From NCBI GenBank assembly GCA_964596875.1, contig CAZQVT010000001.1, positions 175,161 to 239,160 of the forward strand: a stretch of 64,000 nucleotides of DNA, read 5' to 3'. The DNA comes from an uncultured Candidatus Saccharibacteria bacterium. GTDB lineage: Bacteria > Patescibacteriota > Minisyncoccia > Phycocordibacterales > DATDWN01. Below, one piece after another: positions 4,465 to 40,594 of this stretch. Each line of letters begins with the position of its first letter. The first letter of the stretch is position 1. The notes under the pieces were generated by a model. The model was not told the DNA's origin, made no database searches, and saw nothing but the letters and a program-made list of their open reading frames with translations. The translations under genes and the position numbers were made by a program.

Positions 4465-5148
4465 ATGAACAGACGATTCAAGTATTACACTCCTATAGTG
4501 ATGCAGAAGCTTGGATATGTCGTGTTTTATCCTTTACATCGTTTGTTTGTGGATATGGAAATAAGAGGTCGGGAAAATTTAGTCGGTTTAAATGGCCCGA
4601 TTATTTTGGCGTCCAACCATACAGGGGAAATGGATACTATGACAGTACACATGACGTTTCCTTTTTTCTCAAGATTTTTTCCTATTTACTACATTACTTC
4701 TCCAACACTAAAATACAATACATTTGGTTGGCGTAGTTATATATATGGCCAAACTTTCTTCCAACTTTTTGGTGGTTATGCTGTGCATTCAGGTTTTAAA
4801 GATTATGCTATTTCGCTTGAAGACCATATAGATTTGTTGGAACGAGGTCACACTGTGCAAATATATCCTGAAGGAAGAATAACAACAGATGGAAATATCG
4901 GTCCTGCAAGGGGCGGTCTGGGATATATGGTTTATAAAACAGGTGCAACTGTTTTACCGGTGGCTATAGATACTTTTTATGACTTGAGTTGGTATGACTA
5001 TTTTAGAAGAAAAAGAAAAGTCGTGGTTACGATATTAAAGCCATTATCTGAAAATGAAATTGCTACGGCATTCGAGCCCACAGTAGAGGACTACAGACAC
5101 ACAGGAGATTTAGTTTTAAATAAAATACAAGAAGTATTAAAAAAATAA
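4465..5148 (+). CDS. lysophospholipid acyltransferase (PlsC-like)
   Basis: HX4D-type motif NHTGEMD, PEGRIT motif. Confidence 0.6.
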   Translation: MNRRFKYYTPIVMQKLGYVVFYPLHRLFVDMEIRGRENLVGLNGPIILASNHTGEMDTMTVHMTFPFFSRFFPIYYITSPTLKYNTFGWRSYIYGQTFFQLFGGYAVHSGFKDYAISLEDHIDLLERGHTVQIYPEGRITTDGNIGPARGGLGYMVYKTGATVLPVAIDTFYDLSWYDYFRRKRKVVVTILKPLSENEIATAFEPTVEDYRHTGDLVLNKIQEVLKK

Positions 5149-5163
5149 TTTATATTAAAAAAA

Positions 5164-5192
5164 TTGACGTTTATTTAAATAAATGATATACT
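5164..5192 (+). promoter_or_regulatory. sigma70-like promoter TTGACG-17-TATACT driving GC-rich small ORF
   Basis: near-consensus -35/-10 with 17-nt spacer ~55 nt upstream of ORF; GGGAGG RBS at ~5233. Confidence 0.55.
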
Positions 5193-5247
5193 ATATATAG
5201 GTTAATCCGCTCAAGGTTTTGCCTTGGGAGAAGGGAGGTAGATCAAA

Positions 5248-5460
5248 ATGACGCCACTTGCGAGTGAAGTACCGATCGTTCCGAGCATCATTCCTCTGTT
5301 GTTCGGTGAAGAGGGTGACTCCGGAGACGACGGAGACAACGGAAGCTCCGGAGACGACGGAGACGGCGGAACCGGTCAGGGTGATGATCCGGGGGATTCT
5401 TCGGGAGATGACTCCGGACCCGACCATGACGACTACGGTCACGACTCCGATGCCGACTAG
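5248..5460 (+). CDS. small acidic Asp/Gly/Ser-rich protein (70 aa), GC-rich minicassette 1
   Basis: ATG 9 nt downstream of GGGAGG; hydrophobic N-terminus then D/G/S low-complexity tail; internal DNA tandem repeats; GC far above flanks. Confidence 0.4.
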   Translation: MTPLASEVPIVPSIIPLLFGEEGDSGDDGDNGSSGDDGDGGTGQGDDPGDSSGDDSGPDHDDYGHDSDAD

Positions 5461-5486
5461 TTCGGCATGTGACTGACTGACGAGAG

Positions 5487-5513
5487 CGCCACTACCAATC
5501 CGGTAGTGGCGCT
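5487..5513 (+). terminator. hairpin GCGCCACTACC-AATCC-GGTAGTGGCGC after small ORF
   Basis: perfect 11-bp inverted repeat followed by short T stretch. Confidence 0.5.
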
Positions 5514-5539
5514 CGAACTTTTATATTATAATTTTACAC

Positions 5540-8190: not shown

Positions 8191-9737
8191 ATTTATTTGG
8201 TATCACATCCATTATAATATTTTTCGCAAGTATAGGCTTTGGGCTGTTTTTGTACTCATCCAACAGAGAGTCACGAGTAAACAGGTCGTGGTTTGTCGTT
8301 TCGATATTCGTCGGACTATGGGGGCTGTCTTTATATGGAGTTACTTCAACATCAAATATTTTTATAGCAGAAAAGTGGCAGTATCTACTAGATATTTCAG
8401 CGACTCTTATTCCCGTAACGTACTTTGCGTTTGTTTGTGACTTGCTGGGCATTAATAATAGTTGGTTTAGACGTCTCATACTTTACATGGGTGCAGTCGT
8501 ATCAATTTTTAGTGTAACTCCTTATTTTAAACTTGGTGTACATGAAAAGTATGGTTTTTATTGGGTTAATCCAGGTTTTTATTATGAGGTGTTTCCATTA
8601 TTTTTTGGTGGAGTAACACTTATATGTTTAGTTTTTTTGATAATTGGATATAAAAATTCTAAAGATAGTGTGTTCAAGGCTCAAATTAGAAACACATTGT
8701 TGGCAGGGATTATAGGTTTTGGTGGTGGAATTACAAATTTTTTCCCGCAAGTTATAAATATATATCCTTTCGGTAACTATTTTGTGATTCTTTACGTTGC
8801 TTTGATGAGTTATGGAGTTTTGAGATATAAACTTTTGAGTAAAAAAATTATATCCGCTCAACTAGTGAGCGGTGCAATTGTTTTAGTATTTTTGTTTAAT
8901 CTATTACAACCATCATCCTTATTGAACTGGATAGTTAATTTGATTTTGTTTATCTTAGTTCTTATATTTTCAATCTTACTGGTTAAGGGTGTATATAATG
9001 AAATTAGTCAAAAAGAGCAGATAGAGAAACTTGCGGATGATTTGCAAACTGCGAACCAAGGACAAGTAAACCTGATCCATGTTATGAACCACCAAGTTAA
9101 GGGACATTTGGGAAATGCAAAAAATATTTTTGCTGAACTTCTAACTGACGATTATGGAGCAATGCCGGAAGATGCAAAACCACTTTTGGAAAAAGGATTA
9201 CAAGAAACGAATTTGGGAGTGGAGTATGTGCAAAACATATTGCGAGGTGCTTCTGCTGTTACTGGAACTCTGCCTTTTGATATGAAGCCAATAAACTTTA
9301 AGGAAATAGTAGAGGCTGTTTTTGAAAAACAAAAAGGCTACGCAGAAAATAAAGGGCTAAATATTTCTTTGGATATTAAGGAGGGTAAATATGATTTGAC
9401 GGGGGACAGTATACAACTTTCTGAGGCGGTTAAAAATCTTATCGATAATTCCGTGAATTATACGGAAAAAGGAAATATAGATGTAACTCTTTCTCAAGAA
9501 GATAAAATAAGTTTTGTAATAAAGGATACTGGTGTGGGAATTTCGGATGAGGACAAGCCAAAACTATTTAAGTCTGGAGGAAGAGGAACTGATTCACTAA
9601 AAATAAATATAAACTCAACTGGTTATGGTTTGGCTTTTGTAAAAGGTGTTGCTGAAGCACATAAGGGGAAAGTCTCAGCAATATCAGAGGGCGTTGGCAA
9701 AGGATCACAATTTGTACTAGAATTGCCTAAAAACTAA
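8187..9737 (+). CDS. sensor histidine kinase with multi-TM N-terminal domain (orphan)
   Basis: ~6 TM helices, H-box HVMNHQVKGHL, N/G boxes (DNSVNYT, GVGISDED, GYGLAF); ATGA overlap with upstream gene. Confidence 0.8.
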   Translation: MNLFGITSIIIFFASIGFGLFLYSSNRESRVNRSWFVVSIFVGLWGLSLYGVTSTSNIFIAEKWQYLLDISATLIPVTYFAFVCDLLGINNSWFRRLILYMGAVVSIFSVTPYFKLGVHEKYGFYWVNPGFYYEVFPLFFGGVTLICLVFLIIGYKNSKDSVFKAQIRNTLLAGIIGFGGGITNFFPQVINIYPFGNYFVILYVALMSYGVLRYKLLSKKIISAQLVSGAIVLVFLFNLLQPSSLLNWIVNLILFILVLIFSILLVKGVYNEISQKEQIEKLADDLQTANQGQVNLIHVMNHQVKGHLGNAKNIFAELLTDDYGAMPEDAKPLLEKGLQETNLGVEYVQNILRGASAVTGTLPFDMKPINFKEIVEAVFEKQKGYAENKGLNISLDIKEGKYDLTGDSIQLSEAVKNLIDNSVNYTEKGNIDVTLSQEDKISFVIKDTGVGISDEDKPKLFKSGGRGTDSLKININSTGYGLAFVKGVAEAHKGKVSAISEGVGKGSQFVLELPKN

Positions 9738-10426
9738 TGGCACAGGAACAAGTTTGGGACAGGGAATACAAAACATCAAAGCTTTTAACAAAAGACAACA
9801 AACCACAGTCAGATGTGGTGCGTTTTGTTAAATACTTAAAAAAAGATATTAGTTTTCAAATAGAAGGTGCGCAAGTTTTAGATCTTGGTTCTGGCGCAGG
9901 TAGAAACAGTTTTTATTTTGCAGAACTGGGTGCGAGTGTTGTGGGGCTTGAGATATCTAAAACTGCAGTAGAGATCGCAAATAAATACGCAACTGTGGCT
10001 GGGCTCAATATAAAATACATAAAACAAAGTATTGGAGAGACTTTTCCGGTAGAGGATAGTTCAGTAGACATTTTATTAGATATTACATCTTCAAACTCAT
10101 TAGATGAAAAAGAAAGAGAAGTTTATTTAAGCGAATCTCACAGAGTTTTGAAAAATAATGGAATATTTTTTGTAAAAGCACTTTGTTCGGAAGGGGATGA
10201 GAATGCAAAATTTTTAATAAAAAACCATCCTGGTAAGGAAAAAGATACATATATAATGCCGGAACTTGGTGTCACAGAACGTGTTTGGAGTAAGCAGGAT
10301 TTTGTAGATACTTATTCAAAATATTTCAAAGTATTGAATATGGAGAAAAAAACTAGTTATTCGAGGATGAATGGTCGCGTCTACAAACGTAACTTCTGGA
10401 TTTGTTACCTAAAAACAGAAAAATAG
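9737..10426 (+). CDS. class I SAM-dependent methyltransferase
   Basis: motif I VLDLGSGAGRN; TAATG overlap with kinase. Confidence 0.8.
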   Translation: MAQEQVWDREYKTSKLLTKDNKPQSDVVRFVKYLKKDISFQIEGAQVLDLGSGAGRNSFYFAELGASVVGLEISKTAVEIANKYATVAGLNIKYIKQSIGETFPVEDSSVDILLDITSSNSLDEKEREVYLSESHRVLKNNGIFFVKALCSEGDENAKFLIKNHPGKEKDTYIMPELGVTERVWSKQDFVDTYSKYFKVLNMEKKTSYSRMNGRVYKRNFWICYLKTEK

Positions 10427-10512
10427 CATCGTCTGCGTTGTTGCAGTTCAGTTTTGTTTGTTCACCTTACTACCTGTAAGGCTCACTCACAAAACTTCCT
10501 GCGCCTAGCATC
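10427..10512 (+). repeat. intergenic structured hairpin element, copy A (nested stems GTTTTGT/ACAAAAC and CCTTAC/GTAAGG)
   Basis: ~95% identical to copy B at 28221-28303; shares core with copies C, D, E. Confidence 0.7.
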
Positions 10513-10569
10513 CAATACTATTTATCTCCTTTTAGATTTACAAATGTTGTTTATCTGTAAAAATAAACA

Positions 10570-10597
10570 TTGACAAAATAGTTTTATTGTGTAATTT
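10570..10597 (+). promoter_or_regulatory. sigma70-like promoter TTGACA-16/17-TAATTT for GC-rich ORF
   Basis: consensus -35, AT-rich -10, AGGAGGG RBS at ~10621. Confidence 0.5.
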
Positions 10598-10633
10598 TAA
10601 TGTTGAACTGTTCCGACCCAAGGAGGGTCAAAG

Positions 10634-11305
10634 ATGGCGAAAAGCGTGAAAAAGGCTAAGGCTCGTCGAAACAACTGGAAGCGCGAAGCGACCGAAATCA
10701 TGGAGTTGCTGAAGGGCGCCAAGGCAACCATCGAGGCTCTCGAGCTCAAGCAGACTCAGTCGGATTCGGAGCTCGTCGGGGTGAAGGCCGAACTCGAATC
10801 GGCGAAGGCCGAACTCGACAAGGCCAAGGAAGAACTCGGTGCCGTGAAGGCCAAGTTGGCCGAAGTGGAGGCCGGCCTGTCGGCGCTGGAGACCACCAAC
10901 AAGGACCTGGTCAACAGGAACTTCGCTCTGGAAAGCGGCTTCTACGGCTCGCGTAGCAAGTCGCGTCGGCTCGAGAGTCGAAATCGCGAACTGCGGTTGG
11001 AAATCGACTCGCGCCGTCGGCTCGCCGGGGTTCTGGCTGTGTTTCATCACGCCAGTACCTGCACGGAGGACTGCTTAGAGGAGTTCGCGGCAGCCGGCCG
11101 GGCTGTGGGCGTCGACATCGACAAGATCGACAAGGCCCATGTGTCGGAAGCCTACAAGGCAGCCGGCCGTCGGCTTCACAAGCTGACCTGGGAGAAGGGT
11201 ATCCGCATGACCAAGTCGCACATGAGCCCTCAGTCAGCGACGGACTCACTCGAGGCTACGATCAACGCTGTCGAGCAGATGCTCGGGATGCGCGATCGGG
11301 TCTAG
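10634..11305 (+). CDS. coiled-coil hypothetical protein (223 aa), GC-rich minicassette 2
   Basis: heptad-like E/K/A/L-rich N-terminal half; strong RBS; GC ~58% vs ~35% flanks. Confidence 0.5.
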   Translation: MAKSVKKAKARRNNWKREATEIMELLKGAKATIEALELKQTQSDSELVGVKAELESAKAELDKAKEELGAVKAKLAEVEAGLSALETTNKDLVNRNFALESGFYGSRSKSRRLESRNRELRLEIDSRRRLAGVLAVFHHASTCTEDCLEEFAAAGRAVGVDIDKIDKAHVSEAYKAAGRRLHKLTWEKGIRMTKSHMSPQSATDSLEATINAVEQMLGMRDRV

Positions 11306-11323
11306 CCGAGGGGTGTAGAAGGT

Positions 11324-11358
11324 GGGGTGGCTTCGGTCGCCCCAGCTTCTTTTTTTTA
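11324..11358 (+). terminator. GC-rich hairpin + T9 run
   Basis: GGGGTGGC-TTCG-GTCGCCCC stem (with wobbles) followed by TTTTTTTTT. Confidence 0.6.
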
Positions 11359-11385
11359 TTTGAAATTTTGATATCATTTATAGTT

Positions 11386-13167
11386 ATGGAAAAAACTACT
11401 AAATCATCAAAGAACATACCGATAAGAAAAATTTTTGAGCAATATTGGATTGGTACTGAAAGTAAAAGAACTTTACTGTCTCTTTCAGTAGCCTTTTTCT
11501 TTGTTGCTCAGGTTGTGAGAGTGGTAATTCCTATTTTTTATAAAAAATTCTTTGATTTATTGAGTAGCTCAACAAATCCTGGTTCGGATGTGAATAATTT
11601 AGTTCATATTATATATATAGTATTGGGTCTAAATATTGTAAGTTGGGTTTCATGGAGAGTTGGTGTAAACATGTATAATGTAATGGAATCTCGTGTAATG
11701 GCAAAATTAAAACAAAATGCCTTTAACTACTTAACTAGACATTCATACACATTTTTCGCCAACACATTTGGAGGAAGTTTGGTTCAAAAAATAGGCCGTT
11801 TCAGTAGAGCATTTGAGGCCATACTAGATACTTTGGTGTTTAACTTGATGCCACTACTCATTGCGATTTTCGGCTCGATTTATGTAACCTGGACTATAGT
11901 TCCAGTGGTGTCTCTAATGATAATTGCCTGGGTAATAGTTTTTGTTGTGTTTAGTTTTGTTTTCTCAAATTGGAAACTTAAATACGACGAAATATCTGCC
12001 AAGGCTGACACTGCAACTACGGCATATCTTTCTGACGCTATTACAAACAGCACAGCGATGTCTTTTTTTACTGGTCATGAACACGAGTCGAACGGATTCA
12101 AAGATGTAACACAAGATCAAGCAAATAAGACATTGTTTTCTTGGAGACTTGGGGATGTTGTTGATGCTGTACAAACATTACTCATTTTAATAATAGAGTT
12201 TTTTGTATTTTATTATGCTGTCAGATACTGGAAGTCGGGTCTAGCAACTGTCGGTACTTTTGTTTTGATACAGTCTTATATCATTGGTCTTGCAAACCAA
12301 CTTTGGGGACTGAACAGAATAATCCGAAACTTGTACCAAAGTATTGCTGACTCAAAAGAAATGGTGGAGATTTTGATAACTCCATATGAAATTCAAGACA
12401 AACCAGATGCAAAAGATATTGTTGTGAAAAATGGTGAGATAAAGTTCGAGAATGTTACTTTCAATTTTGGAAAAGGGGAAGATGCCTTGAAGGAAATTAA
12501 CCTTACTATCGGTGCCGGTGAAAAAGTTGCTGTGGTTGGTCATAGTGGTGCGGGTAAAACAACTTTGGTTAGACTTATTATGCGACTTTATAATATTACT
12601 TCGGGACATCTATATATAGACAACCAAGATATTGAAGAAGTAACACAAGACAGTTTGAGAAATAACATAAGTTTTGTTCCTCAAGATCCAATACTATTTC
12701 ACAGAACTCTAATGGAAAATATTAGATATGGAAAGCGTGATGCAACAGATGAGGAAGTTATACAGGCTTCAAAACTAGCACATTGTGATGACTTTATAGA
12801 TAAACTTCCTTTGAAATACGATACATATGTTGGTGAAAGAGGTATAAAACTTTCTGGAGGTGAAAGACAAAGGGTCGCTATTGCCAGAGCTTTACTTAAA
12901 AAAGCCCCGATACTTATTTTTGATGAAGCCACGTCGTCACTCGACTCATACTCAGAGTCACTTATTCAGGATGCGTTAGAAAACCTAATGAAAAATAGTA
13001 CAACAATAGTTATAGCCCACAGACTTTCCACTATAAAGAGAATGGATAGAATTATTTCTATGGATGAAGGCAGGATTGTAGAAATCGGAACACACGAAGA
13101 ACTGGCACACAAAGAAAATGGTTTGTATAAAAAGTTGTGGGACTTACAGGTTGGTGGTTTTGTTTAG
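11386..13167 (+). CDS. ABC exporter, fused permease/ATP-binding (MsbA-like)
   Basis: 6-TM domain then Walker A GHSGAGKT, signature LSGGERQR, Walker B ILIFDEATS; ATG at 11386 preferred over TTG at 11368. Confidence 0.85.
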   Translation: MEKTTKSSKNIPIRKIFEQYWIGTESKRTLLSLSVAFFFVAQVVRVVIPIFYKKFFDLLSSSTNPGSDVNNLVHIIYIVLGLNIVSWVSWRVGVNMYNVMESRVMAKLKQNAFNYLTRHSYTFFANTFGGSLVQKIGRFSRAFEAILDTLVFNLMPLLIAIFGSIYVTWTIVPVVSLMIIAWVIVFVVFSFVFSNWKLKYDEISAKADTATTAYLSDAITNSTAMSFFTGHEHESNGFKDVTQDQANKTLFSWRLGDVVDAVQTLLILIIEFFVFYYAVRYWKSGLATVGTFVLIQSYIIGLANQLWGLNRIIRNLYQSIADSKEMVEILITPYEIQDKPDAKDIVVKNGEIKFENVTFNFGKGEDALKEINLTIGAGEKVAVVGHSGAGKTTLVRLIMRLYNITSGHLYIDNQDIEEVTQDSLRNNISFVPQDPILFHRTLMENIRYGKRDATDEEVIQASKLAHCDDFIDKLPLKYDTYVGERGIKLSGGERQRVAIARALLKKAPILIFDEATSSLDSYSESLIQDALENLMKNSTTIVIAHRLSTIKRMDRIISMDEGRIVEIGTHEELAHKENGLYKKLWDLQVGGFV

Positions 13168-18360: not shown

Positions 18361-19089
18361 ATGCCGGATGAGTTTCTAGTTAAAACACATATTTTTGAAG
18401 GTCCATTGGACACACTCCTTTCTCTTATTGAAAAAAGGAAACTTTTCATAAACGATATTTCACTTGCACAGGTTGCCGATGACTATATCGCGTATATAAA
18501 AACTCTAGAAAATTTTCCAATAGCCGACTCCTCACATTTTATTCTTATCGCATCAACCTTAGTTTTAATTAAATCAAAATCTTTACTACCAGACTTGCAA
18601 CTAACCCCCGAAGAAGAAGAAAACATTCACAACCTTGAGGATAGACTAAAGCAGTACCAAAAATATAAGGCACTTTCGCAACATTTGAAAGAAAAGTTTG
18701 GGATAAACATAGAGTACCTAAGACTTCCAAGCAAAGAAAAAAAGATCGTTTTTACTCCTGACAAAAACACTGACATCTCTAAAATGCGTGAAGCGGTAAA
18801 AATACTTATCCAAAACCTACCTAAAAAAGAATTCGTCCCAAAGGCTATAGTTCAAAAAGTTATTTCACTTGAGGAAATGATGGATAATTTGTCGGAAAGA
18901 ATCACAAAGAGTTTCAAAATGAGTTTTAAGGATTTTTCTGGACACGGCAAGGCGGAAAAGGTAAATGTGATAGTGAGTTTCCTTGCGATGCTTGAACTAG
19001 TAAAACAGGGGATAATAAATGTAAGACAAGATGCGGACTTTCATGATATTGAAATGGAGACACAATCCATCGGTGTTCCAAGGTATTAA
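18361..19089 (+). CDS. scpA: segregation and condensation protein A
   Basis: N-terminal FEGPLDxLLxLI signature. Confidence 0.85.
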   Translation: MPDEFLVKTHIFEGPLDTLLSLIEKRKLFINDISLAQVADDYIAYIKTLENFPIADSSHFILIASTLVLIKSKSLLPDLQLTPEEEENIHNLEDRLKQYQKYKALSQHLKEKFGINIEYLRLPSKEKKIVFTPDKNTDISKMREAVKILIQNLPKKEFVPKAIVQKVISLEEMMDNLSERITKSFKMSFKDFSGHGKAEKVNVIVSFLAMLELVKQGIINVRQDADFHDIEMETQSIGVPRY

Positions 19090-19090
19090 A

Positions 19091-19213
19091 ACTTCCAAAT
19101 TTGGCGATCTACTCGTTTCAAAATTGAAAATGTTCGTCACCTTACTACTTGTAAGGCTTCTCACATTTTCAATTCCTCAACTTTGTGTCTCATCCAAATT
19201 GTGAAAGTTTGTT
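19091..19213 (+). repeat. intergenic structured hairpin element, copy C
   Basis: outer stem ATTGAAAATG/CATTTTCAAT, internal loop TTCGTCA/CTTCTCA, inner stem CCTTAC/GTAAGG, 3' tail CAAATTGTGAAAGTTTG; homologous to copy D. Confidence 0.7.
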
Positions 19214-20713: not shown

Positions 20714-20840
20714 AAAATTTTCAAATTTGGCCAATCTCATCTTCTAAATTTTCAAAATTCTCGTCACCTTAGCACTAACTAAGGCTTCTCACATTTTCAA
20801 AATTTATAAGCGACCTTGTCTCAAATTGTGAAAGTTTGAA
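20714..20840 (+). repeat. intergenic structured hairpin element, copy D
   Basis: inner stem CCTTAG/CTAAGG compensatory relative to copy C; conserved flanks and GTGAAAGTTTG tail. Confidence 0.7.
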
Positions 20841-20850
20841 AAGTTTTTGT

Positions 20851-20898
20851 AAACGAAAAGGCCGACACGATAGTCTGTATGACCTGATCGTATCGGCC
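20851..20898 (-). terminator. hairpin GGCCGA(T)ACGAT...ATCGT(G)TCGGCC + TTTTCGTTT ending GC-rich minicassette 3
   Basis: 11-bp imperfect inverted repeat followed by T run on - strand, just after stop of 20917 ORF. Confidence 0.55.
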
Positions 20899-20916
20899 GA
20901 AGCCCGTGTGTGTGGG

Positions 20917-21186
20917 CTAGAACCGCTTACTGACGTACTTGAGTGCTTCCCAGGTGAGTAACACCAGTGAGGAGTACACGATTGGCAGTGACGCCAGTCC
21001 GTACTCGTAGCTCTCGGTGAACATGGAGACCATGAGTCCCAGAGTCAGTACTCCGTGCAGAAGCAGGGGAACGAAGTACAGTACTATTGCAGGGAGAACG
21101 AGGCTAATGATTGCCCCGAACACCCTGAGCCACTTGTCGTCTCGATACCCGCCCATGAGGAGCGGGTTAAAGCCCAAGCATCCCAT
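20917..21186 (-). CDS. hypothetical small membrane protein (89 aa, ~2 TM), gene 3 of GC-rich minicassette 3
   Basis: ATG preceded by GGAGGAGCG; hydrophobic helices; GC-rich. Confidence 0.45.
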   Translation of the reverse strand: MGCLGFNPLLMGGYRDDKWLRVFGAIISLVLPAIVLYFVPLLLHGVLTLGLMVSMFTESYEYGLASLPIVYSSLVLLTWEALKYVSKRF

Positions 21187-21194
21187 CGCTCCTC

Positions 21195-21299
21195 CTACAT
21201 CTTGAAGGCGATAACCGCCAGGATTACGGCGATGCAGCCCAAGGCGAATTGGATTTCTCTTGTAGCCTTCTTGAAGTACTCGAACTGTTCTTCGGTCAT
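21195..21299 (-). CDS. 34-aa single-TM peptide (MTEEQFEYFKKATREIQFALGCIAVILAVIAFKM), gene 2 of minicassette 3
   Basis: not in ORF track (<60 aa); ATG 6 nt after TAGGAGGCT RBS; stop 8 nt before next ATG. Confidence 0.4.
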   Translation of the reverse strand: MTEEQFEYFKKATREIQFALGCIAVILAVIAFKM

Positions 21300-21309
21300 G
21301 CCTAGCCTC

Positions 21310-21735
21310 CTATCGAAGTTGGACCATCTCGCCGACCACGTCGTCCTTGCCTTCGAGGCTTTGGACGATGAAGTTGGTTGCTCCGCAGGCGTCGCAGAGG
21401 AACTTCACGACATCCATCTTCTGGATCTCGAGTTCCTCCACCTTGTCGATCGTGACGAAGTTCTTGTCGACGATCTTGCCGAGATGCACTCGGACCTTGC
21501 CCGTTGTGTTCAACTTGAACGCGATCACTCCGGGCTTGGTGTCGTACCGGAGCTTCATCCCGATGGCGCTGTGAGGCACGATGGTGAACTGGACGGAGTT
21601 TTCAAGTGCGATCGCGTACGGCTTCATGGGCTGGGTTGTTTCCACCCAGTAAACCATTGAAACTATCGCGACCGTGAGTGCGCAAATGACGAGTATTCCT
21701 CGCCAGTGGCGGGACAGAGTAGTGTCTTCGGTCAT
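21310..21735 (-). CDS. hypothetical membrane-anchored protein (141 aa, N-terminal TM), gene 1 of minicassette 3
   Basis: ATG 6 nt after GGAGGCC RBS, consensus promoter upstream. Confidence 0.5.
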   Translation of the reverse strand: MTEDTTLSRHWRGILVICALTVAIVSMVYWVETTQPMKPYAIALENSVQFTIVPHSAIGMKLRYDTKPGVIAFKLNTTGKVRVHLGKIVDKNFVTIDKVEELEIQKMDVVKFLCDACGATNFIVQSLEGKDDVVGEMVQLR

Positions 21736-21754
21736 GCTGTGGCCTCCGATATTA

Positions 21755-21782
21755 ATTATATCATTTATACAGTATAAGTCAA
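21755..21782 (-). promoter_or_regulatory. consensus sigma70 promoter TTGACT-16-TATAAT (on - strand)
   Basis: read from reverse complement; 5'UTR GTATAAATGATATAATTAATATCGGAGGCCACAGCATG is homologous to 5'UTR of cassette 6. Confidence 0.6.
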
Positions 21783-28208: not shown

Positions 28209-28220
28209 TTAAAATTAACT

Positions 28221-28303
28221 CATCTGCGTTGTTGCAGTTCAGTTTTGTTCGTTCACCTTACTACTTGTAAGGCTCACTCACAAAACATCCTGCGCCTAGC
28301 ATC
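28221..28303 (+). repeat. intergenic structured hairpin element, copy B
   Basis: ~95% identical to copy A over ~85 nt. Confidence 0.7.
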
Positions 28304-28336
28304 TGAACCAATTTAAATCATCTCAGAACAAATTAT

Positions 28337-29805: not shown

Positions 29806-31077
29806 ATGAGATGGCAGAAATACATACTTTTTCTAATACTCCTACTTTCAACTAGTATTGCTATTGCCCAAAACGCCACAACTTCAGAAGTTCTAAAAAA
29901 CAAAATCGACGAAAGAAACAACCAGATAAAAAAACTTGAAGAAGAAATAAAAGTCTACAACAAAGAAGTAGAAACTGCTGGCAAACAAGCCAAGACTTTG
30001 CAGACTACACTAAAAACTCTTGACCTTACCAAAAAGAAAATCGAAACGGATATTTCGCTTACAGAAAACAAAATAACTAAAACTACCCTAACTATAGATC
30101 AACTTGGTCAAGAAATAGGTACTACTAGAAGCAAAATAGATGTAAACAAACAGGCTATAAGTGCGGCACTCAAAAATAGACAGTACATGGACAGTACTGA
30201 CTTTATTAGTATGATGCTGTCGAAAAAAAGTCTGGGTGAAATATGGGGCGACATAGACGACATAGAGGAAGTTCGTGAAGCGATACGTGTAAAGACTTTG
30301 GAGTTAGACTCTCTAAAGAAAAATATGGAAAACAATCAAGAAAATCTAAAAGGTGAAAAGACCAACTTGGTTACCCTAAAACAAGACCTCTCTGGTAAAA
30401 AACAAGCCGTAGAATACACAACTCAGGAAAAGGCTGCGGTGCTAGTTGAAACAAAAAATAAAGAACAAACATACAAAGAACTTGTAAAAACAAAACAACA
30501 ACAAAAAGATCAGTTCGAGAAAGAACTTTTCGAATACGAGTCACAACTAAAATATCTTATCGACCCAAACAGTTACCCTAAAGGTAGAAGCGGAATTTTT
30601 GCGTGGCCACTAGATAAAGTTATCATTACACAAAAGTTTGGTAAAACTGTTGGCGCAGAAAAACTATACGCATCTGGTAGTCACAATGGTGTAGACTTTG
30701 GCGCAAGTATTGGAACAAGAGTTAAAAATGTTTTAGACGGAGAAGTTGTGGGTACAGGGGACACAGACAAATACCCTGGCTGTTACTCTTTTGGTCGCTG
30801 GGTTATGGTAAAACACGGCAATGGTCTCTCTACAATATACGGACACCTTTCTGTGATAAGTGTGCAGAAAGGTCAAACACTTAAGACTGGAGATACGATA
30901 GGTTTTTCTGGAAACACAGGTTACTCTACTGGTCCGCATTTACATATATCTGTTTATGCGACTCAAGGTGTGCGTATAGAAAAATACGTAAATAGTAGGG
31001 GATGTAAAGAGGCGACTCTCCCACTTGCCGACATCAAAGCCTACCTAGACCCACTGGCATACTTCCCATCACTTTAG
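29806..31077 (+). CDS. M23 family metallopeptidase with N-terminal coiled coil (EnvC-like)
   Basis: signal/TM, long coiled coil, HNGVDFGA...GNTGYSTGPHLH M23 motifs. Confidence 0.85.
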   Translation: MRWQKYILFLILLLSTSIAIAQNATTSEVLKNKIDERNNQIKKLEEEIKVYNKEVETAGKQAKTLQTTLKTLDLTKKKIETDISLTENKITKTTLTIDQLGQEIGTTRSKIDVNKQAISAALKNRQYMDSTDFISMMLSKKSLGEIWGDIDDIEEVREAIRVKTLELDSLKKNMENNQENLKGEKTNLVTLKQDLSGKKQAVEYTTQEKAAVLVETKNKEQTYKELVKTKQQQKDQFEKELFEYESQLKYLIDPNSYPKGRSGIFAWPLDKVIITQKFGKTVGAEKLYASGSHNGVDFGASIGTRVKNVLDGEVVGTGDTDKYPGCYSFGRWVMVKHGNGLSTIYGHLSVISVQKGQTLKTGDTIGFSGNTGYSTGPHLHISVYATQGVRIEKYVNSRGCKEATLPLADIKAYLDPLAYFPSL

Positions 31078-31101
31078 GCATATATTTGGTATAATAAACA
31101 T

Positions 31102-31308
31102 ATGAAAAAACCTAGAACAAACCAAGGATTTGTAGTGAAAATTGTTTTGATCATCGTTGCGCTTATCTTTGTGAAATACTATTTCCATATAGATATAGTT
31201 GAATGGTATAAGTCTCCTACAGGCCAAAAGTACGTTGGAAGTATCTGGAATATGATAAAGGACTTCTACAACTGGGCCGACAACTACGCTAGGACTAAGG
31301 TGTTTTAG
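31102..31308 (+). CDS. small hypothetical membrane protein (68 aa)
   Basis: ORF only; stop abuts stop of convergent RloB-like gene. Confidence 0.25.
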   Translation: MKKPRTNQGFVVKIVLIIVALIFVKYYFHIDIVEWYKSPTGQKYVGSIWNMIKDFYNWADNYARTKVF

Positions 31309-31830
31309 TTACGAATTGAATAATTTATGTATTTCAGGAAAGTATGTTTTGAAAATAATATTGTTTGGTATTATCTTTATTAAATCAATATTTTTCATGT
31401 GTTGTGCTTCCTTGCCGAAGTGGCTCAAAAAATTCTTTTTACAGATGGATCTGAAATTTTTTGAATCGATAGTATTTTTGATTTTTTTACCCACTATTTC
31501 CAGTAAGACACCCTCTGGATTGGGGTTACATAATTGAACTTTGTGGCGAAGACCTTTTATGTATAGTGCTATTTTTTGAGAATCATCAAGATCGTAGTCC
31601 GCCATAAAAAAGAAGTGGATTTTCTCACTTAGTTTTTTTGGTTTAATTTCATACTTTCGTGTTAAGCTAGAAACTTTATTACTGAAAGTCTTTAAGTCAT
31701 TAAACCCCCCCATAATCTCATATTTAAAAGATAAGGGCTTTGAGCAAAAATAAGTTTTGAAAAATCCAAAAAGATTGTATTCTGTGGGTCCTTCACAACA
31801 TATCACATATACATCCTTGGTACTTCTCAT
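31309..31830 (-). CDS. RloB-like (TOPRIM-like) protein, AbiLii-like
   Basis: N-terminal VYVICCEGPTEYNLF matches RloB family CEGxxTExxYF signature; 14 nt downstream of AAA_21 ATPase gene. Confidence 0.6.
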   Translation of the reverse strand: MRSTKDVYVICCEGPTEYNLFGFFKTYFCSKPLSFKYEIMGGFNDLKTFSNKVSSLTRKYEIKPKKLSEKIHFFFMADYDLDDSQKIALYIKGLRHKVQLCNPNPEGVLLEIVGKKIKNTIDSKNFRSICKKNFLSHFGKEAQHMKNIDLIKIIPNNIIFKTYFPEIHKLFNS

Positions 31831-31843
31831 AAATAGTTTATTT

Positions 31844-33052
31844 TTAAATAAATTGCTTGATCATGTGTTCGAATCCAATTGTATCAGGTGTGCCTCCAAG
31901 CAAACCGAGTCTATACTTCTTCTTTAAATTATCCCTATTTTTTACATCCTTCAATTCAGATACCTTGTAAACAATTGAATTATGCTTCTCTTTTTCCACA
32001 ATAAAAGTTTGATCAAGATTCAGGAGCTCTAAGGTTTCGTGATTATGTGTCGCAAAAAAAATTTGAGCATTACCAGTATTTATATCTTTGTTTTTAAATA
32101 AAGATATAATTGATTTCTCTATTTCTGGGTGAAAATACAAATTTGTCTCGTCATAGACAACTAAACCGCCCTTTTTGAAGACAGTAAGTAAATTATATAT
32201 ATGTGCAAAAAGCTCCTTTGTTCCAGCTGATTCTTGCATTAAATCTACGCTTTCATAAAAACCTTTATGTGAAACTTTCACTGATGATGTATTGTTTTCA
32301 ATATCAAGTGATTCAATAGTGTCGTCAAATCGACTCATTATATCTCTAGTAAGTTTTATCATTTCTTCTTTCTTGTTTTTTTCAGCAGTACTTATTCGAA
32401 ATGCATGAGATATTATTCCAAAAATAGTTGGCATAGAATCTAGCTCCGCAGTTTTCGTAAACCAGGACTTTAAATCCCTAAAATAATTAAAATCTTGACC
32501 AGCCCTAAACCCCTCTATTAGATGTGATAGAAGGGTTTGGTACTCAGCAAGCTTTAAAACTGAAAAATATGATTTATGATCTTTGAAGTCTGGGCCAAAA
32601 GTTATTTTTCCATTGAGTCTGTTGAATACAAGCTTAGGTTTTCCAGATTTTAACTTTGTGTTAGTTACGAACAGAGTTTCCGAGCTAATATTTTTTCTAT
32701 CCTTAATTTCTATGTCGTATTTGTAATAGTTTTCATTCAACAAAATATCTATACCAAGCTTGGTTGGTTTATTTTTAAAAGTAGAATGAAAGTTGTTGTA
32801 GGCTAAAATAGTGTCTTTTTGTTCAGGAGTAAGTGTTGTTTTTGTATACATTAAACGTATAAGCGAACTGATTGCTTTTAAAATAGTACTTTTGCCACTA
32901 GCATTAGCACCGTAGAATCCATTTAGAAGAGAAATCTTCTGATTTTTAAAGTTTAAATATCCATCTTCAGTAGTAGAACCTCCCTTTATAAAGTTCAATT
33001 CTAGTGGTTTACCAACAGAATAAAAGTTTGCTAAACGTATTTTTGTTATCAT
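31844..33052 (-). CDS. AAA_21/ABC-type ATPase, RloA/AbiLi-like
   Basis: Walker A GANASGKST, Walker B VVYDE, H-loop ATHNHE; 402 aa; low GC. Confidence 0.7.
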   Translation of the reverse strand: MITKIRLANFYSVGKPLELNFIKGGSTTEDGYLNFKNQKISLLNGFYGANASGKSTILKAISSLIRLMYTKTTLTPEQKDTILAYNNFHSTFKNKPTKLGIDILLNENYYKYDIEIKDRKNISSETLFVTNTKLKSGKPKLVFNRLNGKITFGPDFKDHKSYFSVLKLAEYQTLLSHLIEGFRAGQDFNYFRDLKSWFTKTAELDSMPTIFGIISHAFRISTAEKNKKEEMIKLTRDIMSRFDDTIESLDIENNTSSVKVSHKGFYESVDLMQESAGTKELFAHIYNLLTVFKKGGLVVYDETNLYFHPEIEKSIISLFKNKDINTGNAQIFFATHNHETLELLNLDQTFIVEKEKHNSIVYKVSELKDVKNRDNLKKKYRLGLLGGTPDTIGFEHMIKQFI

Positions 33053-33557
33053 ATTAATATTTATGCAATAAAATGTACAATTTAAAGTATAGTACCTTAA
33101 ATTAAATACGTCAAACCTTAGGGCAGGGGACTTCCCTACAAATAATAGGAAATTTTAGAACCTCAAATAATGGGGTTCGGATGGTAAAAGGGGTGCTATC
33201 TAGGTACCTAGAAAAGAGAACTCTAAGCCAATTATTTGGTGCATTTTTATATATAAATATTTAATGAAAACCATTTAATGATTAAACTGAACAAACGAAT
33301 CTTTTGAGCAAACCCCCTTAGGGACTATGCTAAAAAGATATATTGTGCGACACGGCTATATACTCCCCCCCTCTATATAACTAACTAAAAACAATAAAAC
33401 ATTTAATTACTAAAATAATTGAATATGTAATTATTTTGCATCAAAAAAATCCCGCCCCCACCCCACCCTGGTTCAGCCGGTTTACACAAAAGTAAAAATA
33501 CATATACTTATTACGAAACACAATATCCGTTCTTTTCGGTTTCTGGAGGTTCGCGCC

Positions 33558-34007
33558 ATGAATGGCATTGAAGGAAACGTTCAGCTGGTGTTCGTGCTGA
33601 TGGGCGTGATCTCTGGTCTTTTGGGCGGAATTGCCCACGCCAAGAAACGGCACGGTTTGGGGTGCTACAAGAACGGCACTCTGAGTCTGACACCACAGTG
33701 GTACCGCTGTGGCAGTTGCTGGACTGCCGTAGTCTTCTACGCGGTTTTCATGGGCTGCATTTTTGCGCTCATGCACGACATTTACTACGCTGGCACTCAG
33801 ACAGTTGGAGGTGCCATCGGACAAGTTGTCGTCACGTTTTTTGGTGTCATATTGTCTGCCGTGTTGACGTTAGCGGTGGCACTGCTGGGCTTGCTTGCCA
33901 TCGGCTACTCGGAACATCGCTGGCCTCAGTGTCGTAAGTATAAGTGGATCTCCTACAGCTTCGCAGTCATCGTTCGAACGTATCTCTATCACCTCACTAG
34001 ATACTAG
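33558..34007 (+). CDS. hypothetical integral membrane protein (149 aa, ~4 TM, Cys-containing), GC-rich minicassette 4
   Basis: ATG 7 nt after GGAGG; GC-rich. Confidence 0.45.
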   Translation: MNGIEGNVQLVFVLMGVISGLLGGIAHAKKRHGLGCYKNGTLSLTPQWYRCGSCWTAVVFYAVFMGCIFALMHDIYYAGTQTVGGAIGQVVVTFFGVILSAVLTLAVALLGLLAIGYSEHRWPQCRKYKWISYSFAVIVRTYLYHLTRY

Positions 34008-34028
34008 GAGCGCAGACAACCACCACAC

Positions 34029-34077
34029 ATCGCAAGTCGCAAGATCCGGAGGATCGCAAGGCGACTTGCGATTTTCC
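34029..34077 (+). terminator. 12-bp perfect hairpin ATCGCAAGTCGC...GCGACTTGCGAT + TTT
   Basis: immediately after 33558-34007 ORF; two further small hairpins follow. Confidence 0.55.
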
Positions 34078-34198
34078 ATATATAAAAATACAGGCTACTT
34101 GCCTGTTTCACATAAATACAAATAGCCCTTGCGGGCCATTTGTCTAATTAGTATAACTCTGGGGCTTTTGTATAGATAGTAAGTTATGCACAGGTAAC

Positions 34199-34982: not shown

Positions 34983-36053
34983 CTATAGACCCTCGTTTCT
35001 AAGACCCTCTATAGTCTTTTTTGCGTCTTTTGAGAGTTTGTGAGGCATAACTATGCTTGTTATGACCAATATATCACCCCTACTTCCCCTATCTAGGGCG
35101 ACACCCTTGCCTTTGATACGAAGTATTTCTCCATGTTTTAGACCCTCTGGTACTTTTAGGGTGATATCGCCTTCTAGAGTTTTGATAACAGTTTCGCCTC
35201 CCAGGATGGCATCGGTAAGTTTGACTGGAAGATCCATGACAAGGTTTGCACCTTCTTTTCTAAAGAAAGCATGTTTTTTAACGTAAACCTTTATATACAA
35301 GTCTCCTGACTGGCCAGAGGCTATGGCTTCCCCTGCCCCAGATAGGCGGATCATTTCTCCACTTTCTATACCTGCGGGAATATGGACTTTTATCTCTGTT
35401 TCGCGTTTTAGTAGGCCCTCTCCGCGACAAGTTTCACATTTATTTTTAGGGACTTTGCCAGCACCGTGACAGACGTCACATGTTGTTTGAGTTTCAAACT
35501 GACCAAAGAATGTTCTTTTGACTTCGCGAATAGAGCCCTTGCCGTTACATTTTGAACAAGTCGCTTGTTCGCTACCTTTTTGTCCACCAGAACCATTGCA
35601 AGTCTCACATTTTGAAACCTTGTTTAGTAGAACTGTTTTGTCTACTCCAAAGACAGAGTCTTCGAAAGATATTTCAGTGTCGATAGATATGTCACGACCT
35701 CTTTTTGATTGTCTTCTTCCACCACCGCCAAATACATCACCAAAGATGTCACCAAAGTCGAACTCGAAGCCACCGTTCGCACCCTGCGTAAACTGTGAGA
35801 AGTCAAAACCTTCAAATCCGCCACCGAAACCACCTCCTCCCATGTTTGGACCGGCAGAGCCAAACTGGTCGTACTGCGCACGTTTCTGGTCATCAGAAAG
35901 AATCGAGTAAGCCTCGTTTATTTCTTTGAACTTTGCATCATCGCCAGTTTTTTTGTCCGGGTGATATTTATGGGCTAGGGTTCGAAAAGCCTTTTTGATC
36001 TCGTCTTTTGAGGCCTTTTTGTCGACGCCCAAAGTTTGGTAGTAATCTTTCAT
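34983..36053 (-). CDS. dnaJ: molecular chaperone DnaJ
   Basis: J domain with HPD, G/F region, four CxxCxGxG zinc-finger repeats; start at MKDYYQTLGV preferred over upstream extension. Confidence 0.9.
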   Translation of the reverse strand: MKDYYQTLGVDKKASKDEIKKAFRTLAHKYHPDKKTGDDAKFKEINEAYSILSDDQKRAQYDQFGSAGPNMGGGGFGGGFEGFDFSQFTQGANGGFEFDFGDIFGDVFGGGGRRQSKRGRDISIDTEISFEDSVFGVDKTVLLNKVSKCETCNGSGGQKGSEQATCSKCNGKGSIREVKRTFFGQFETQTTCDVCHGAGKVPKNKCETCRGEGLLKRETEIKVHIPAGIESGEMIRLSGAGEAIASGQSGDLYIKVYVKKHAFFRKEGANLVMDLPVKLTDAILGGETVIKTLEGDITLKVPEGLKHGEILRIKGKGVALDRGSRGDILVITSIVMPHKLSKDAKKTIEGLRNEGL

Positions 36054-36160
36054 GATTGTTATTATAAGGTTTTTTTGGGTAATGTATAGGTTTGACCACA
36101 CCCTATCTATAATGTAGTCTGTATTGTGGAATACGGGTCATCTTGGCCCACGGAGAAACC

Positions 36161-36496
36161 ATGAGCGAGTCTCTTTTGGGTGAGGTTAAGTTCCCAGTGC
36201 AGTTTGCCTGCGATATCTGCGGGCATCACTTTTCGTGCGAGCGAGAGGGCCTGAAGAGCCACGAAGTCAACAGGAGGCACTTTATCAGACTGATTCGTAC
36301 CACGGTCGTTGCGGCCTGTCCCGCGTGCGATGCAAACGTGGGCAGATCATTCGATGAGCTGCTTCCGGATGCTCCTAACACTCTCGGTGAACTGCGAGCG
36401 CAGTACAAAGTCGCCCGCGGCAACGGTGCTGGGCCTCTCGAGGCCATCGGCTTCGCCAAGTTCAAGATTCGTCTCGTCAAGCGGAGGATCGCATGA
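36161..36496 (+). CDS. hypothetical Cys4 zinc-ribbon protein 1, GC-rich minicassette 5
   Basis: CxxC...CxxC, Arg/Lys-rich tail, GGAG RBS; ATG 36161 preferred over TTG 36143. Confidence 0.4.
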   Translation: MSESLLGEVKFPVQFACDICGHHFSCEREGLKSHEVNRRHFIRLIRTTVVAACPACDANVGRSFDELLPDAPNTLGELRAQYKVARGNGAGPLEAIGFAKFKIRLVKRRIA

Positions 36497-36783
36497 ATCG
36501 TCAGCGCCATCGGTTTGTATGCAGCAATTGTAGTACCTCATTCGAACCGGAGTGTCCGGTCGTCCCAACGGAGAACGTTCGGTCTGAAGTTCCGAAGGCG
36601 AAGCTCCTGGAGGCGAGTTGTCCGCTTTGCGGTTACACGGTCAAGATGATCGTGAACGGAGTGTTGGACATCGAGAGGCTTCATAGCGATCCGGTGAAAC
36701 GTCAGTACTTCCATCACAGGCGTCGCGGAATGGATGCTCCTCTAGCCAGGCGCTTGGCGAACCGGCTCGCCACAAGAAACTAG
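36493..36783 (+). CDS. hypothetical Cys4 zinc-ribbon protein 2 (translationally coupled)
   Basis: ATGA start/stop overlap with previous ORF, GGAGG RBS, CxxC...CxxC, basic C-terminus. Confidence 0.4.
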   Translation: MNRQRHRFVCSNCSTSFEPECPVVPTENVRSEVPKAKLLEASCPLCGYTVKMIVNGVLDIERLHSDPVKRQYFHHRRRGMDAPLARRLANRLATRN

Positions 36784-36806
36784 TTCCCGCCCCTCTGGGG
36801 CATACC

Positions 36807-36841
36807 AGCCCGTGGCCGAGTTCGCTCGTCGCGGGCTTTGT
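36807..36841 (+). terminator. hairpin AGCCCG...CGGGCT + TTT after zinc-ribbon pair
   Basis: 6-bp GC stem with weak U tract; also GCCCC-TCT-GGGGC hairpin at 36789-36801. Confidence 0.4.
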
Positions 36842-36853
36842 CACATCTCTTTG

Positions 36854-38774: not shown

Positions 38775-38900
38775 CAGAGCTTCCATTTTTGAAAAATTTC
38801 TTTGTTGGAACTTCGGAAACTCTCGTCACCTTATACTAGATAAGGCTCCTCGCTTTTCCTTGTTCCGCCTCGAACTTTTCTCAAAAACTGAAAGCGTGTG
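38775..38900 (+). repeat. intergenic structured hairpin element, copy E (in dnaK upstream region, + orientation)
   Basis: CTCGTCA-CCTTAT-ACTAG-ATAAGG-CTCCTCGC with outer GGAAA/TTTCC; compensatory stem change vs copies C and D. Confidence 0.65.
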
Positions 38901-39838: not shown

Positions 39839-39891
39839 AGGACTGTATTTTAACACAAAAAATATATGGGTCAAATGTAGCACTTTGATTT

Positions 39892-39913
39892 AGTCGCCAT
39901 AGTACGAGGCGGT
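39892..39913 (+). repeat. direct repeat DR1 (AGTCGCCATAGTACGAGGCGGT, extends to ~35 nt)
   Basis: identical 22-mer at 40240-40261; both followed by (T)TTTTCGT. Confidence 0.7.
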
Positions 39914-39956
39914 CATTTTCGTATAAATATGTTATGTTAATTTCGGAGGTGCACAG

Positions 39957-40220: not shown

Positions 40221-40239
40221 CCGTCACGTACGGCGATTA

Positions 40240-40261
40240 AGTCGCCATAGTACGAGGCGGT
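40240..40261 (+). repeat. direct repeat DR2 (terminator-like CGCC...GGCG + T6)
   Basis: copy of DR1 348 nt downstream. Confidence 0.7.
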
Positions 40262-40460
40262 TTTTTCGTTGGGTGATCTCTTAGTCTAGAGTAATTTACT
40301 CGTCGCCACTCCTAAATTCTCTCCGACCGCTGACTCGCTTGTTTTGTTTGCTAACAAAACATAGCTCCGTCTTCGAAGAGTAAAGAAAAAGCCCCATAAA
40401 AGGGGCTGTTTTCTATCTCTTCGACCAATGTGGAACGAAAATTTATTAAAATTTTCTCCT

Positions 40461-40526: not shown

Positions 40527-40594
40527 GCACCTCAGTGGAGTAAAAGAAAAACGCCCCTAAGGGCGTTAGTCTATCTTTTACTCCACTGAGGTGC
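40527..40594 (-). terminator. 20-bp perfect inverted repeat hairpin whose one arm is the last 7 codons of rpsI, nested canonical terminator in loop
   Basis: GCACCTCAGTGGAGTAAAAG...CTTTTACTCCACTGAGGTGC; loop contains CGCCCTTAGGGGCG+T5 on - strand. Confidence 0.6.

Follow-up and report, generated by a model that had tools for sequence, protein, structure and literature searches.

A predicted self-contained, GC-rich one-gene unit, possibly moron-like, in an AT-rich Patescibacteria chromosome

The DNA studied here (the window) is a stretch of 64,000 nucleotides from contig CAZQVT010000001.1 of assembly GCA_964596875.1. Between a methyltransferase (MTase) gene and an ABC exporter gene it carries a short GC-rich unit at positions 10570–11358, which encodes a protein of 223 amino acids (aa). 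Our results suggest that this unit is a moron-like piece of the chromosome: one allele of a fast-evolving orphan family, maintained in a GC-rich state and swapped between related genomes by recombination. We favour this reading with moderate confidence. Under it, a single gene with a promoter, a hairpin holding the ribosome-binding site (RBS), an open reading frame (ORF) of 223 codons and an intrinsic terminator would sit in a Zambryskibacteria-like chromosome. It would be one allele of a small orphan family confined to a narrow clade, in which some genomes carry the unit and others do not. The regulatory frame would stay conserved while the coding part splits into two deep allelic types, and homologous recombination would pass the module between related genomes. 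The unit would also belong to a class of small GC-rich accessory units, with a GC content at third codon positions (GC3) of about 0.55–0.78 in genomes of about 0.29. Their GC-richness would be held either by selection on mRNA or codons or by a continual influx from some GC-richer vehicle not yet sampled. The encoded protein would be an adaptor or nucleic-acid-binding coiled-coil protein in a process under diversifying pressure. The elements of the unit are as follows.

10570–10575, + strand: −35 box TTGACA, predicted; the hexamer is perfect, and TTGACA occurs only twice on the + strand of the whole window
10588–10595, + strand: TGTGTAAT box, presumed extended −10 region, predicted and non-canonical; its distance to the −35 box is constant among the family loci
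10615–10629, + strand: hairpin GACCC-AAGGA-GGGTC of the 5' untranslated region (UTR), with the Shine-Dalgarno sequence AAGGAGGG (10620–10627); from covariation
10634–11305, + strand: ORF of 223 aa; from the ORF listing, GC3 of 0.78, the family alignment and an AlphaFold2 model
11317–11357, + strand: intrinsic terminator, an extended GC stem (core 11323–11344) followed by T8 (11350–11357); from folding, a terminator scan and conservation

An earlier note on this DNA had listed the ORF, the RBS and a GC-stem terminator, and all of them lie where it placed them; the run of nine T residues that it read behind the stem is a run of eight. What it called a consensus TTGACA promoter is only partly that. 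The −35 hexamer is perfect, but the −10 region is not a canonical TATAAT, and a scan for consensus promoters did not call the promoter of the unit.

Evidence for a real transcription unit comes from comparison with related loci (labelled L001 and so on). The ORFs of nine aligned loci, the window included, are only 23–54% identical, while the sequences that frame them are conserved. The −35 element reads TTGACAAA in eight of the nine loci and TTTACAAA in L004. The leader follows the consensus GAAAC..GTTCCGGCC-AAGGA-GGGCCAAAyATG and the terminator the consensus GGGGTGrCTTCGGyCrCCC...CTTCTTTTTTT. In the window, six nucleotides separate the Shine-Dalgarno sequence from the ATG at 10634. The 5-bp stem around it is paired in all 42 cells of the alignment (9 sequences), a value matched by only 2 of 500 shuffles, and two of its pairs carry compensatory changes, from G-C to A-U in the window and from C-G to U-A in L009. 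The terminator stem (11317–11350; −27.7 kcal/mol, folding z = −3.7) has a 9-bp core within a 14-bp extended stem before the T8 run, and it is called by the terminator scan. It is kept in eight relatives, whose stem variants preserve the pairing. Because promoter boxes, UTR hairpin and terminator are conserved in eight related loci, and across both allelic types, around ORFs whose identity has dropped to 23–48%, the prediction of a self-contained one-gene transcription unit, already made in the earlier note, is supported. The same −35/TGTGTAAT promoter design also precedes a homologue of another GC-rich unit of the window, cassette 3, in locus L037 (the unit studied here is cassette 2). The −35 box, the strong Shine-Dalgarno sequence, the 5' hairpin and the strong terminator suggest a stable, well-expressed mRNA, and these expression signals suggest that the product may be abundant. 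The 5' hairpin may act either as an mRNA stabiliser or as a brake on initiation.

The composition of the unit differs sharply from its surroundings. At 58.3% GC, positions 10570–11358 rank first among 1265 sampled windows of 789 nucleotides (mean 37.2%, standard deviation 4.3%), which makes the unit the GC maximum of the window. The ORF itself has 60.7% GC, with 0.62/0.42/0.78 at the three codon positions. In 49 ordinary genes of the window, GC3 is 0.29 ± 0.04 and does not exceed 0.38. The earlier note had considered that GC-rich segments might be common among conserved core genes; since none of these 49 housekeeping genes has a GC3 above 0.38, the window holds no such pattern. Across 333 ORFs from 15 loci GC3 is bimodal, with a mode at 0.25–0.30 and a shoulder at 0.45–0.70, and the ORF of the unit is the most extreme. 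The GC content steps from 0.33 to 0.51 at about 10600 and from 0.64 to 0.21 at about 11350.

One could argue that such a segment is an assembly chimera, or that its ORF arose by chance in GC-rich DNA. GC-rich DNA contains few stop codons and yields long ORFs in several frames, and an antisense ORF of 140 aa (10628–11050) indeed lies opposite the 223-aa ORF. Nevertheless, the probability of such an artefact is negligible and we regard it as refuted for practical purposes. The flanks are those named in the earlier note, the MTase gene at 9737–10426 upstream and the ABC exporter downstream (start at 11386 in the gene call of L001, or at a TTG at 11368 in the ORF listing of the window). The same junctions are found in independent assemblies, among them Logan SRR12712864 (locus L001), and hence the unit is not an assembly chimera. 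The GC content at the three codon positions is typical of a coding frame. The ratio of nonsynonymous to synonymous divergence (dN/dS) is 0.52, and the C-terminal domain of the protein is conserved in ten proteins with 17 invariant residues.

The protein, which contains ...SRSKSRRLESRNRELRLEIDSRRR..., has a basic N-terminal arm (residues 1–16), a long helix (15–139) and a conserved helical C-terminal domain (about 120–190) in an AlphaFold2 model with a predicted local distance difference test score (pLDDT) of 81.8. The helix runs without a break for about 125 residues of heptad-like composition and is presumed to form a coiled coil. A word-indexed search of 5.8 billion proteins returned, besides the protein itself, a single homologue (50% identity), whereas an exhaustive HMMER search with the C-terminal domain against 1.84 billion representatives yielded ten true members. 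A divergent eleventh member, in L012, came from a tblastn comparison with 15 related loci. No further members emerged from a later profile search, a scan of GTDB genomes with the family profile gave no match, and the one contig recovered in a metagenome scan was already known. The family is thus known from about eleven sequences, all on AT-rich Zambryskibacteria-like (Patescibacteria) contigs. Its members are 195–267 aa long with a coiled coil of variable length. At the basic N-terminus an invariant arginine and an invariant lysine flank a nearly invariant tryptophan (R-x-S-W-K in most members). The C-terminal domain has the consensus RRR[LFI][AS][GA].LA.[FL]H ... ED ... F ... G ... AYK.A.R and a polar cluster made of H138, E145/D146, Y174/K175 and R179.

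The structure and remote-homology searches that the earlier note proposed brought up no relatives from the family and structure libraries covered. Coiled-coil noise, and nothing specific, came out of Pfam, PHROGs, PADLOC, NCBIfam and a sequence profile of the PDB. The best matches, to Tropomyosin (PF00261), EzrA (PF06160), SMC (TIGR02168) and JetC/LmuB (PADLOC), reach 15–24 bits against cut-offs of 24–729 and span the coiled coil only; the C-terminal domain matches nothing. The product is probably cytoplasmic and dimeric: a coiled-coil protein whose N-terminal arm is rich in lysine and arginine and whose helical C-terminal domain is new. With this architecture, in which a basic arm precedes a long coiled coil and a small helical domain that bears a polar cluster, the protein may be a dimeric adaptor or may bind nucleic acids.

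Wherever the contig is readable, members of the family lie beside AT-rich genes of the same lineage. The exception is L030, a contig of 1.1 kb whose sole neighbouring gene is GC-rich. The gene content, with FtsW, MurG, aminoacyl-tRNA synthetases, DnaK/DnaJ/GrpE and ScpA/B, points to a bacterial chromosome rather than a phage. Where neighbours could be identified, all members but one are found in a neighbourhood of histidine kinase, MTase, in some cases an ABC exporter, and tryptophanyl-tRNA synthetase (TrpRS), arranged as follows.

L002, L004, L029, L031/32, L033–36: histidine kinase, MTase, member, (GNAT), TrpRS
L012: member between histidine kinase and MTase
L026: member between ABC exporter and TrpRS
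L027: member after a hydrolase-like gene
L009: no called neighbour of the member

This synteny bears on the most obvious explanation for a GC-rich gene in an AT-rich genome, a recent horizontal islet from a GC-rich donor (for example a host or a neighbouring bacterium) that has not yet ameliorated. The explanation has some appeal, since the GC3 of 0.78 lies about 12 standard deviations above the host mean, the composition boundaries are sharp, the gene is missing from most related species representatives and L004 carries a GC-rich DUF397 gene in place of cassette 1. It is nonetheless very unlikely, and largely refuted by synteny. At least eight diverged relatives, whose flanks are saturated at synonymous sites, have homologues in this same neighbourhood. 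Between the window and L002, for example, the MTases share 75% of their amino acids at a synonymous divergence (dS) of 1.19, and the TrpRS proteins share 79%, with dS saturated beyond estimate. The AT-rich promoter and UTR belong to the conserved unit. No homologue in a GC-rich, phage or plasmid context was found among the 1.84 billion representatives or in IMG/VR, INPHARED and PLSDB. For the neighbouring GC-rich GNAT and DUF397 genes, the search for a donor in plasmids gave matches of at most 36% identity, or none. No mobility gene lies beside the unit, the tRNA and Rfam scans of the 64-kb window gave no match, and a repeat search of the window found no direct repeats flanking the unit. The description of the unit as compositionally foreign therefore stands as a description (GC3 of 0.78 against 0.29), whereas the reading as a recently acquired foreign cassette is not supported, because homologues are syntenic in diverged relatives.

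The earlier note had also suggested looking at presence and absence in related genomes. Relatives of the MTase (62–81% identity) are found in 15 metagenome-assembled genomes that represent species, and the family is missing from 14 of these 15 loci. It is present in L002, L004, L029, L031 and L033–L036. At least eight of the 14 family-negative loci have other GC-rich genes at the position downstream of the MTase, namely a 192-aa GNAT acetyltransferase, an orphan of 170–193 aa or a different ABC exporter, and in L004 three GC-rich units follow the MTase in tandem. Since different GC-rich genes occupy one slot in relatives, the slot downstream of the MTase is a hot spot for GC-rich accessory units. 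GC-rich genes in this slot are located at:

L004, 8412–10726
L010, 10756–12147
L013, 6255–6833
L019, 11002–12903
L029, 2058–2636
L033, 10873–11451

The GNAT of the slot is well conserved, with a GC3 of 0.63–0.75. The slot exporter (633 aa, GC3 0.61) is not orthologous to the AT-rich exporter of the window. We did consider the GC-rich exporter of L019/L014 as an orthologue, which would have made GC-richness a property of the locus. We rejected this idea: identity between the two is 30%, against 68% for the true orthologue in L031, which is AT-rich.

The unit could also be a moron in the strict sense, one that resides mostly on an unsampled GC-richer phage or plasmid and is repeatedly delivered to the same chromosomal site; such delivery would keep it GC-rich and set its phylogeny at odds with that of the flanks. 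By definition, morons have their own promoter, their own terminator and a deviant GC content (PMC3594210), all of which apply here. Presence/absence polymorphism and incongruent allelic types are in line with this reading, as are different GC-rich genes behind the MTase in different relatives, and the untranslated parts of the units are GC-rich too. We still consider this quite unlikely. There are no relatives in IMG/VR, among INPHARED phages or among PLSDB plasmids, no integrase or phage gene lies nearby (the neighbours being TrpRS, ABC transporters, a kinase, DnaK and DnaJ), and every readable copy is chromosomal.

How the chromosomal module might move is suggested by its alleles. The family falls into two allelic types that are 22–31% identical to each other. 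Type A comprises the window, L002, L004, L009 and, loosely, L026; type B comprises L027, L029, L030, L031 and L033. This split does not follow the flanking genes. L002 and L029 share 91% of TrpRS and 86% of MTase, and yet only 27% of the cassette protein, whereas the more distant window and L002 share 48% of it (dN 0.40, dS 0.77, GC3 0.77 and 0.73). The allelic types thus conflict with the flanks, and most likely the module has been exchanged between lineages by homologous recombination through its conserved frame and the core genes on either side. Judging from a dN/dS of about 0.5, deep allelic types and patchy presence, the gene may act where pressure is diversifying, for example in conflict with phages or with a host.

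If the GC-richness were the fading scar of an import, it should have decayed between such divergent alleles. At fourfold degenerate sites in codons for shared amino acids, the two types are identical at a proportion of 0.31, against 0.27 expected from composition, and hence these sites are saturated. Despite this saturation, the GC content at fourfold sites (GC4) is 0.55–0.78 in nine of the ten members compared (0.26 in L026). GC-richness therefore looks maintained or re-supplied rather than decaying. The direction of change tells a similar story with less force. Polarised by parsimony, synonymous changes in the family number 57 from GC to AT and 31 from AT to GC (1.8:1), and those in the neighbouring GC-rich GNAT 63 and 59; decay towards host composition is estimated to give about 6:1. 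The polarisation was informative for the GNAT and for TrpRS, which as a control returned the expected host-like equilibrium (0.33).

One force that could hold the composition in place is selection. A structured GC-rich mRNA might resist RNases that prefer AU, or rare GC-ending codons might throttle or condition translation. The high GC4 at saturated sites, the near balance of changes in the GNAT and the ratio of only 1.8:1 in cassette 2 are in line with this idea. Per nucleotide, the fold of the coding sequence is also about twice as stable as that of host genes; the mean folding z is about −2.5 among the GC-rich members (most between −2 and −4), against about −0.7 in host genes and +0.5 in L026. 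Furthermore, the 5' hairpin and strong Shine-Dalgarno sequence resemble mRNA stabilisers of the STAB-SD/ompA type. Selection in place is nevertheless a rather unlikely explanation when taken by itself, weakened by the retention of an AT-rich member, by cassettes whose mRNA shows no excess of structure and by the unreliable polarisation control (see below). GC-biased gene conversion at a recombination hot spot would be a third possible force, but the composition changes very abruptly at the edges of the unit and the homology arms on either side show no GC enrichment. Without strong conviction, we rank in-place selection on mRNA or codons first, re-supply from an unsampled vehicle second and GC-biased gene conversion third.

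Several observations weigh against the picture of a moron-like unit that keeps its GC-richness. L026 has a host-like GC3 of 0.33 and still retains the gene, and hence GC-richness is not obligatory. The MTase control of the polarisation failed (implied equilibrium 0.51, real value 0.25), which makes the direction-of-change evidence weak. mRNA structure shows only a modest excess, and the other cassettes give no uniform result (c1, c5a and c5b have z near 0). Non-coding parts within GC-rich units are GC-rich as well, which is easier to explain by an origin on a replicon of higher GC content than by selection on codons. Ordinary amelioration, if slow and starting from an ancestor of very high GC content, might also, with lower probability, explain the data. 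The contigs of the family are mostly short (1–6 kb), and no fold or family match backs any functional assignment.

Upstream, the earlier note had the unit bounded by a hairpin, "copy A". The hairpin is there (10420–10540, z = −5.0), but it does not serve as a boundary. It is one of a set of long, imperfect hairpins, each about 115 nucleotides in length with the conserved tip CACCTTA-N(4–6)-TAAGG, found at the following positions.

Window, + strand: 10420–10540
Window, + strand: 19088–19208
Window, + strand: 20714–20835
Window, + strand: 28211–28330
Window, + strand: 38781–38894
Window, − strand: 62212–62229 (tip of a sixth copy)
L013: 5244–5262
L037: 525–543

Folding z ranges from −2.7 to −5.5, most copies are intergenic and near the end of a gene, and the family has no match in Rfam. 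Only two of the six copies adjoin GC-rich units, and in eight relatives the cassette directly follows the preceding gene without a hairpin. Conversely, relatives have the hairpin at other places, as after MurG in L037, where it is syntenic with the window copy at 28254. The six-copy distribution and the cassettes lacking a hairpin rule it out as a cassette boundary; judging from its distribution, it is an independent intergenic repeat and not part of the unit. The hairpins may be terminators, protein-binding sites or a repeat resembling miniature inverted-repeat transposable elements (MITEs). An equal spacing of repeats gave rise to the idea of a segmental duplication of the histidine kinase and MTase genes at 25.8–28.2 kb; the genes there are FtsW and MurG, and the idea was dropped.

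The unit is not the only sharp GC-rich island in the window. There are five, which together make up about 5% of its length.

5181–5520: a 70-aa acidic ORF rich in Asp, Gly and Ser, with 9-nt-periodic repeats
10581–11421: contains the unit
20836–21760, − strand: three small membrane ORFs
33530–34080: a 149-aa membrane ORF
36100–36850: two ORFs resembling CxxC zinc ribbons

Each island has one to three short ORFs with a GC3 of 0.59–0.78, a promoter-like AT-rich leader and a terminal GC hairpin, as read from the sequence. None of the island ORFs has an above-threshold match in Pfam, PHROG, PADLOC or NCBIfam. The 141-aa ORF of cassette 3 (20836–21760) has only three homologues among 5.8 billion proteins; in L037 one of these lies at the matching AsnB/S11-peptidase site, and L033–L035 lack the unit. 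With few homologues, a shared site and a patchy distribution, cassette 3 behaves like cassette 2. The two-gene unit at 36100–36850 lies on the opposite strand, wedged between dnaJ (34983–36101, − strand) and dnaK (36854–38755, − strand) in an otherwise conserved grpE-dnaK-dnaJ arrangement. In L004 the cassette-1 site carries a GC-rich gene for a 97-aa protein with a DUF397 domain (4483–4776, − strand), for which no close plasmid-borne relative was found; DUF397 is mainly an actinobacterial domain.

One could go further and propose that Zambryskibacteria-like genomes actively hold moron-like modules at a gene-specific GC3 set-point of about 0.6–0.8, over a background of 0.29 and for periods in which neutral sites become saturated, and shuffle them via promoter and terminator frames, with cassette 2 as a new, abundant coiled-coil family under diversifying pressure. 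We put this forward as a speculative generalisation that is unlikely to hold.

The window has some other notable features. Cumulative GC skew peaks at about 30000–33600, where the genes also turn from the + to the − strand; the replication terminus probably lies there. This part of the window includes a gene for an AAA_21/AbiEii-like ATPase (31844–33052, − strand) and a stretch of 500 nucleotides free of ORFs (33053–33557). A 32-nt direct repeat (39887–39918 and 40235–40266; 91% identity, 348 nt apart) and a 26-nt inverted repeat (40527–40594; 92% complementary, 16-nt spacer) are found in or next to a GC-elevated stretch at about 40.1–40.3 kb, without a tRNA or Rfam match.

How does the unit compare with known systems? 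Phage morons are independent units with their own promoter and terminator and a deviant GC content, for example gene 15 of HK97 (PMC3594210). The unit has its own predicted promoter and terminator, conserved in nine aligned loci, it contrasts in composition with its neighbours (58.3% against 37.2% GC), and it is literally "more DNA", absent from 14 of the 15 representatives that bear the MTase. It thus shows three of the four defining features of a moron and lacks the fourth, residence in a phage genome. Unlike morons, it lies among chromosomal housekeeping genes where no phage families or relatives were found, it is syntenic across diverged genomes, and its contrast persists at saturated sites.

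In the Lawrence-Ochman model, genomic islets and ORFans are acquired horizontally and later ameliorated. The unit shares with them an atypical composition, a patchy distribution and an orphan product. It differs in its fixed location, in a native-looking AT-rich promoter and in having neither a donor nor a mobility signature: no tRNA, flanking direct repeat or homologue outside the AT-rich clade was found. It also differs in showing no amelioration in nine of the ten members compared, despite saturation. Like integron gene cassettes, small single-gene modules pile up at one hot spot (three in L004). In contrast to integron cassettes, each unit has its own promoter and Rho-independent terminator. 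No integrase occurs among the window genes scanned, and a general repeat search, run with no dedicated attC model, found no attC-type inverted repeat at the ends of the unit. The unit is therefore not an integron cassette by definition.

Two parts of the unit have parallels of their own. The STAB-SD element of cryIIIA and the 5' hairpin of ompA stabilise mRNA through a 5' stem-loop or a strong Shine-Dalgarno sequence. The hairpin of the unit is likewise a short GC hairpin near the predicted 5' end that overlaps a perfect Shine-Dalgarno sequence and shows compensatory changes; unlike them, it is a predicted element that could equally restrain initiation. The protein shares a long continuous helix of heptad-like composition with SMC arms, EzrA, DivIC, ZapB and tropomyosin-like proteins, whereas its C-terminal domain (RRRLAG.LA.FH..G...ED...F ... 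AYK.A.R) is unmatched among them, and it adds a family without detectable relatives.

Compositional outliers are routinely taken as recent imports that decay towards host composition, and here a syntenic outlier keeps its GC-rich codons. This would imply either a gene-specific force on composition or an unseen GC-richer vehicle of genes for an uncultured, ultra-small lineage. Either answer would bear on the supply and expression of flexible genes in Patescibacteria, and on the reliability of GC content as a guide to horizontal transfer in their genomes. The conserved frame of promoter, UTR and terminator could moreover serve as an expression cassette in a lineage without genetic tools. The literature we searched contains no description of such units in Patescibacteria. 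Measured against all these systems, a single orphan gene is ordinary; what is unusual is a class of self-contained units with a persistent compositional contrast in an uncultured lineage.

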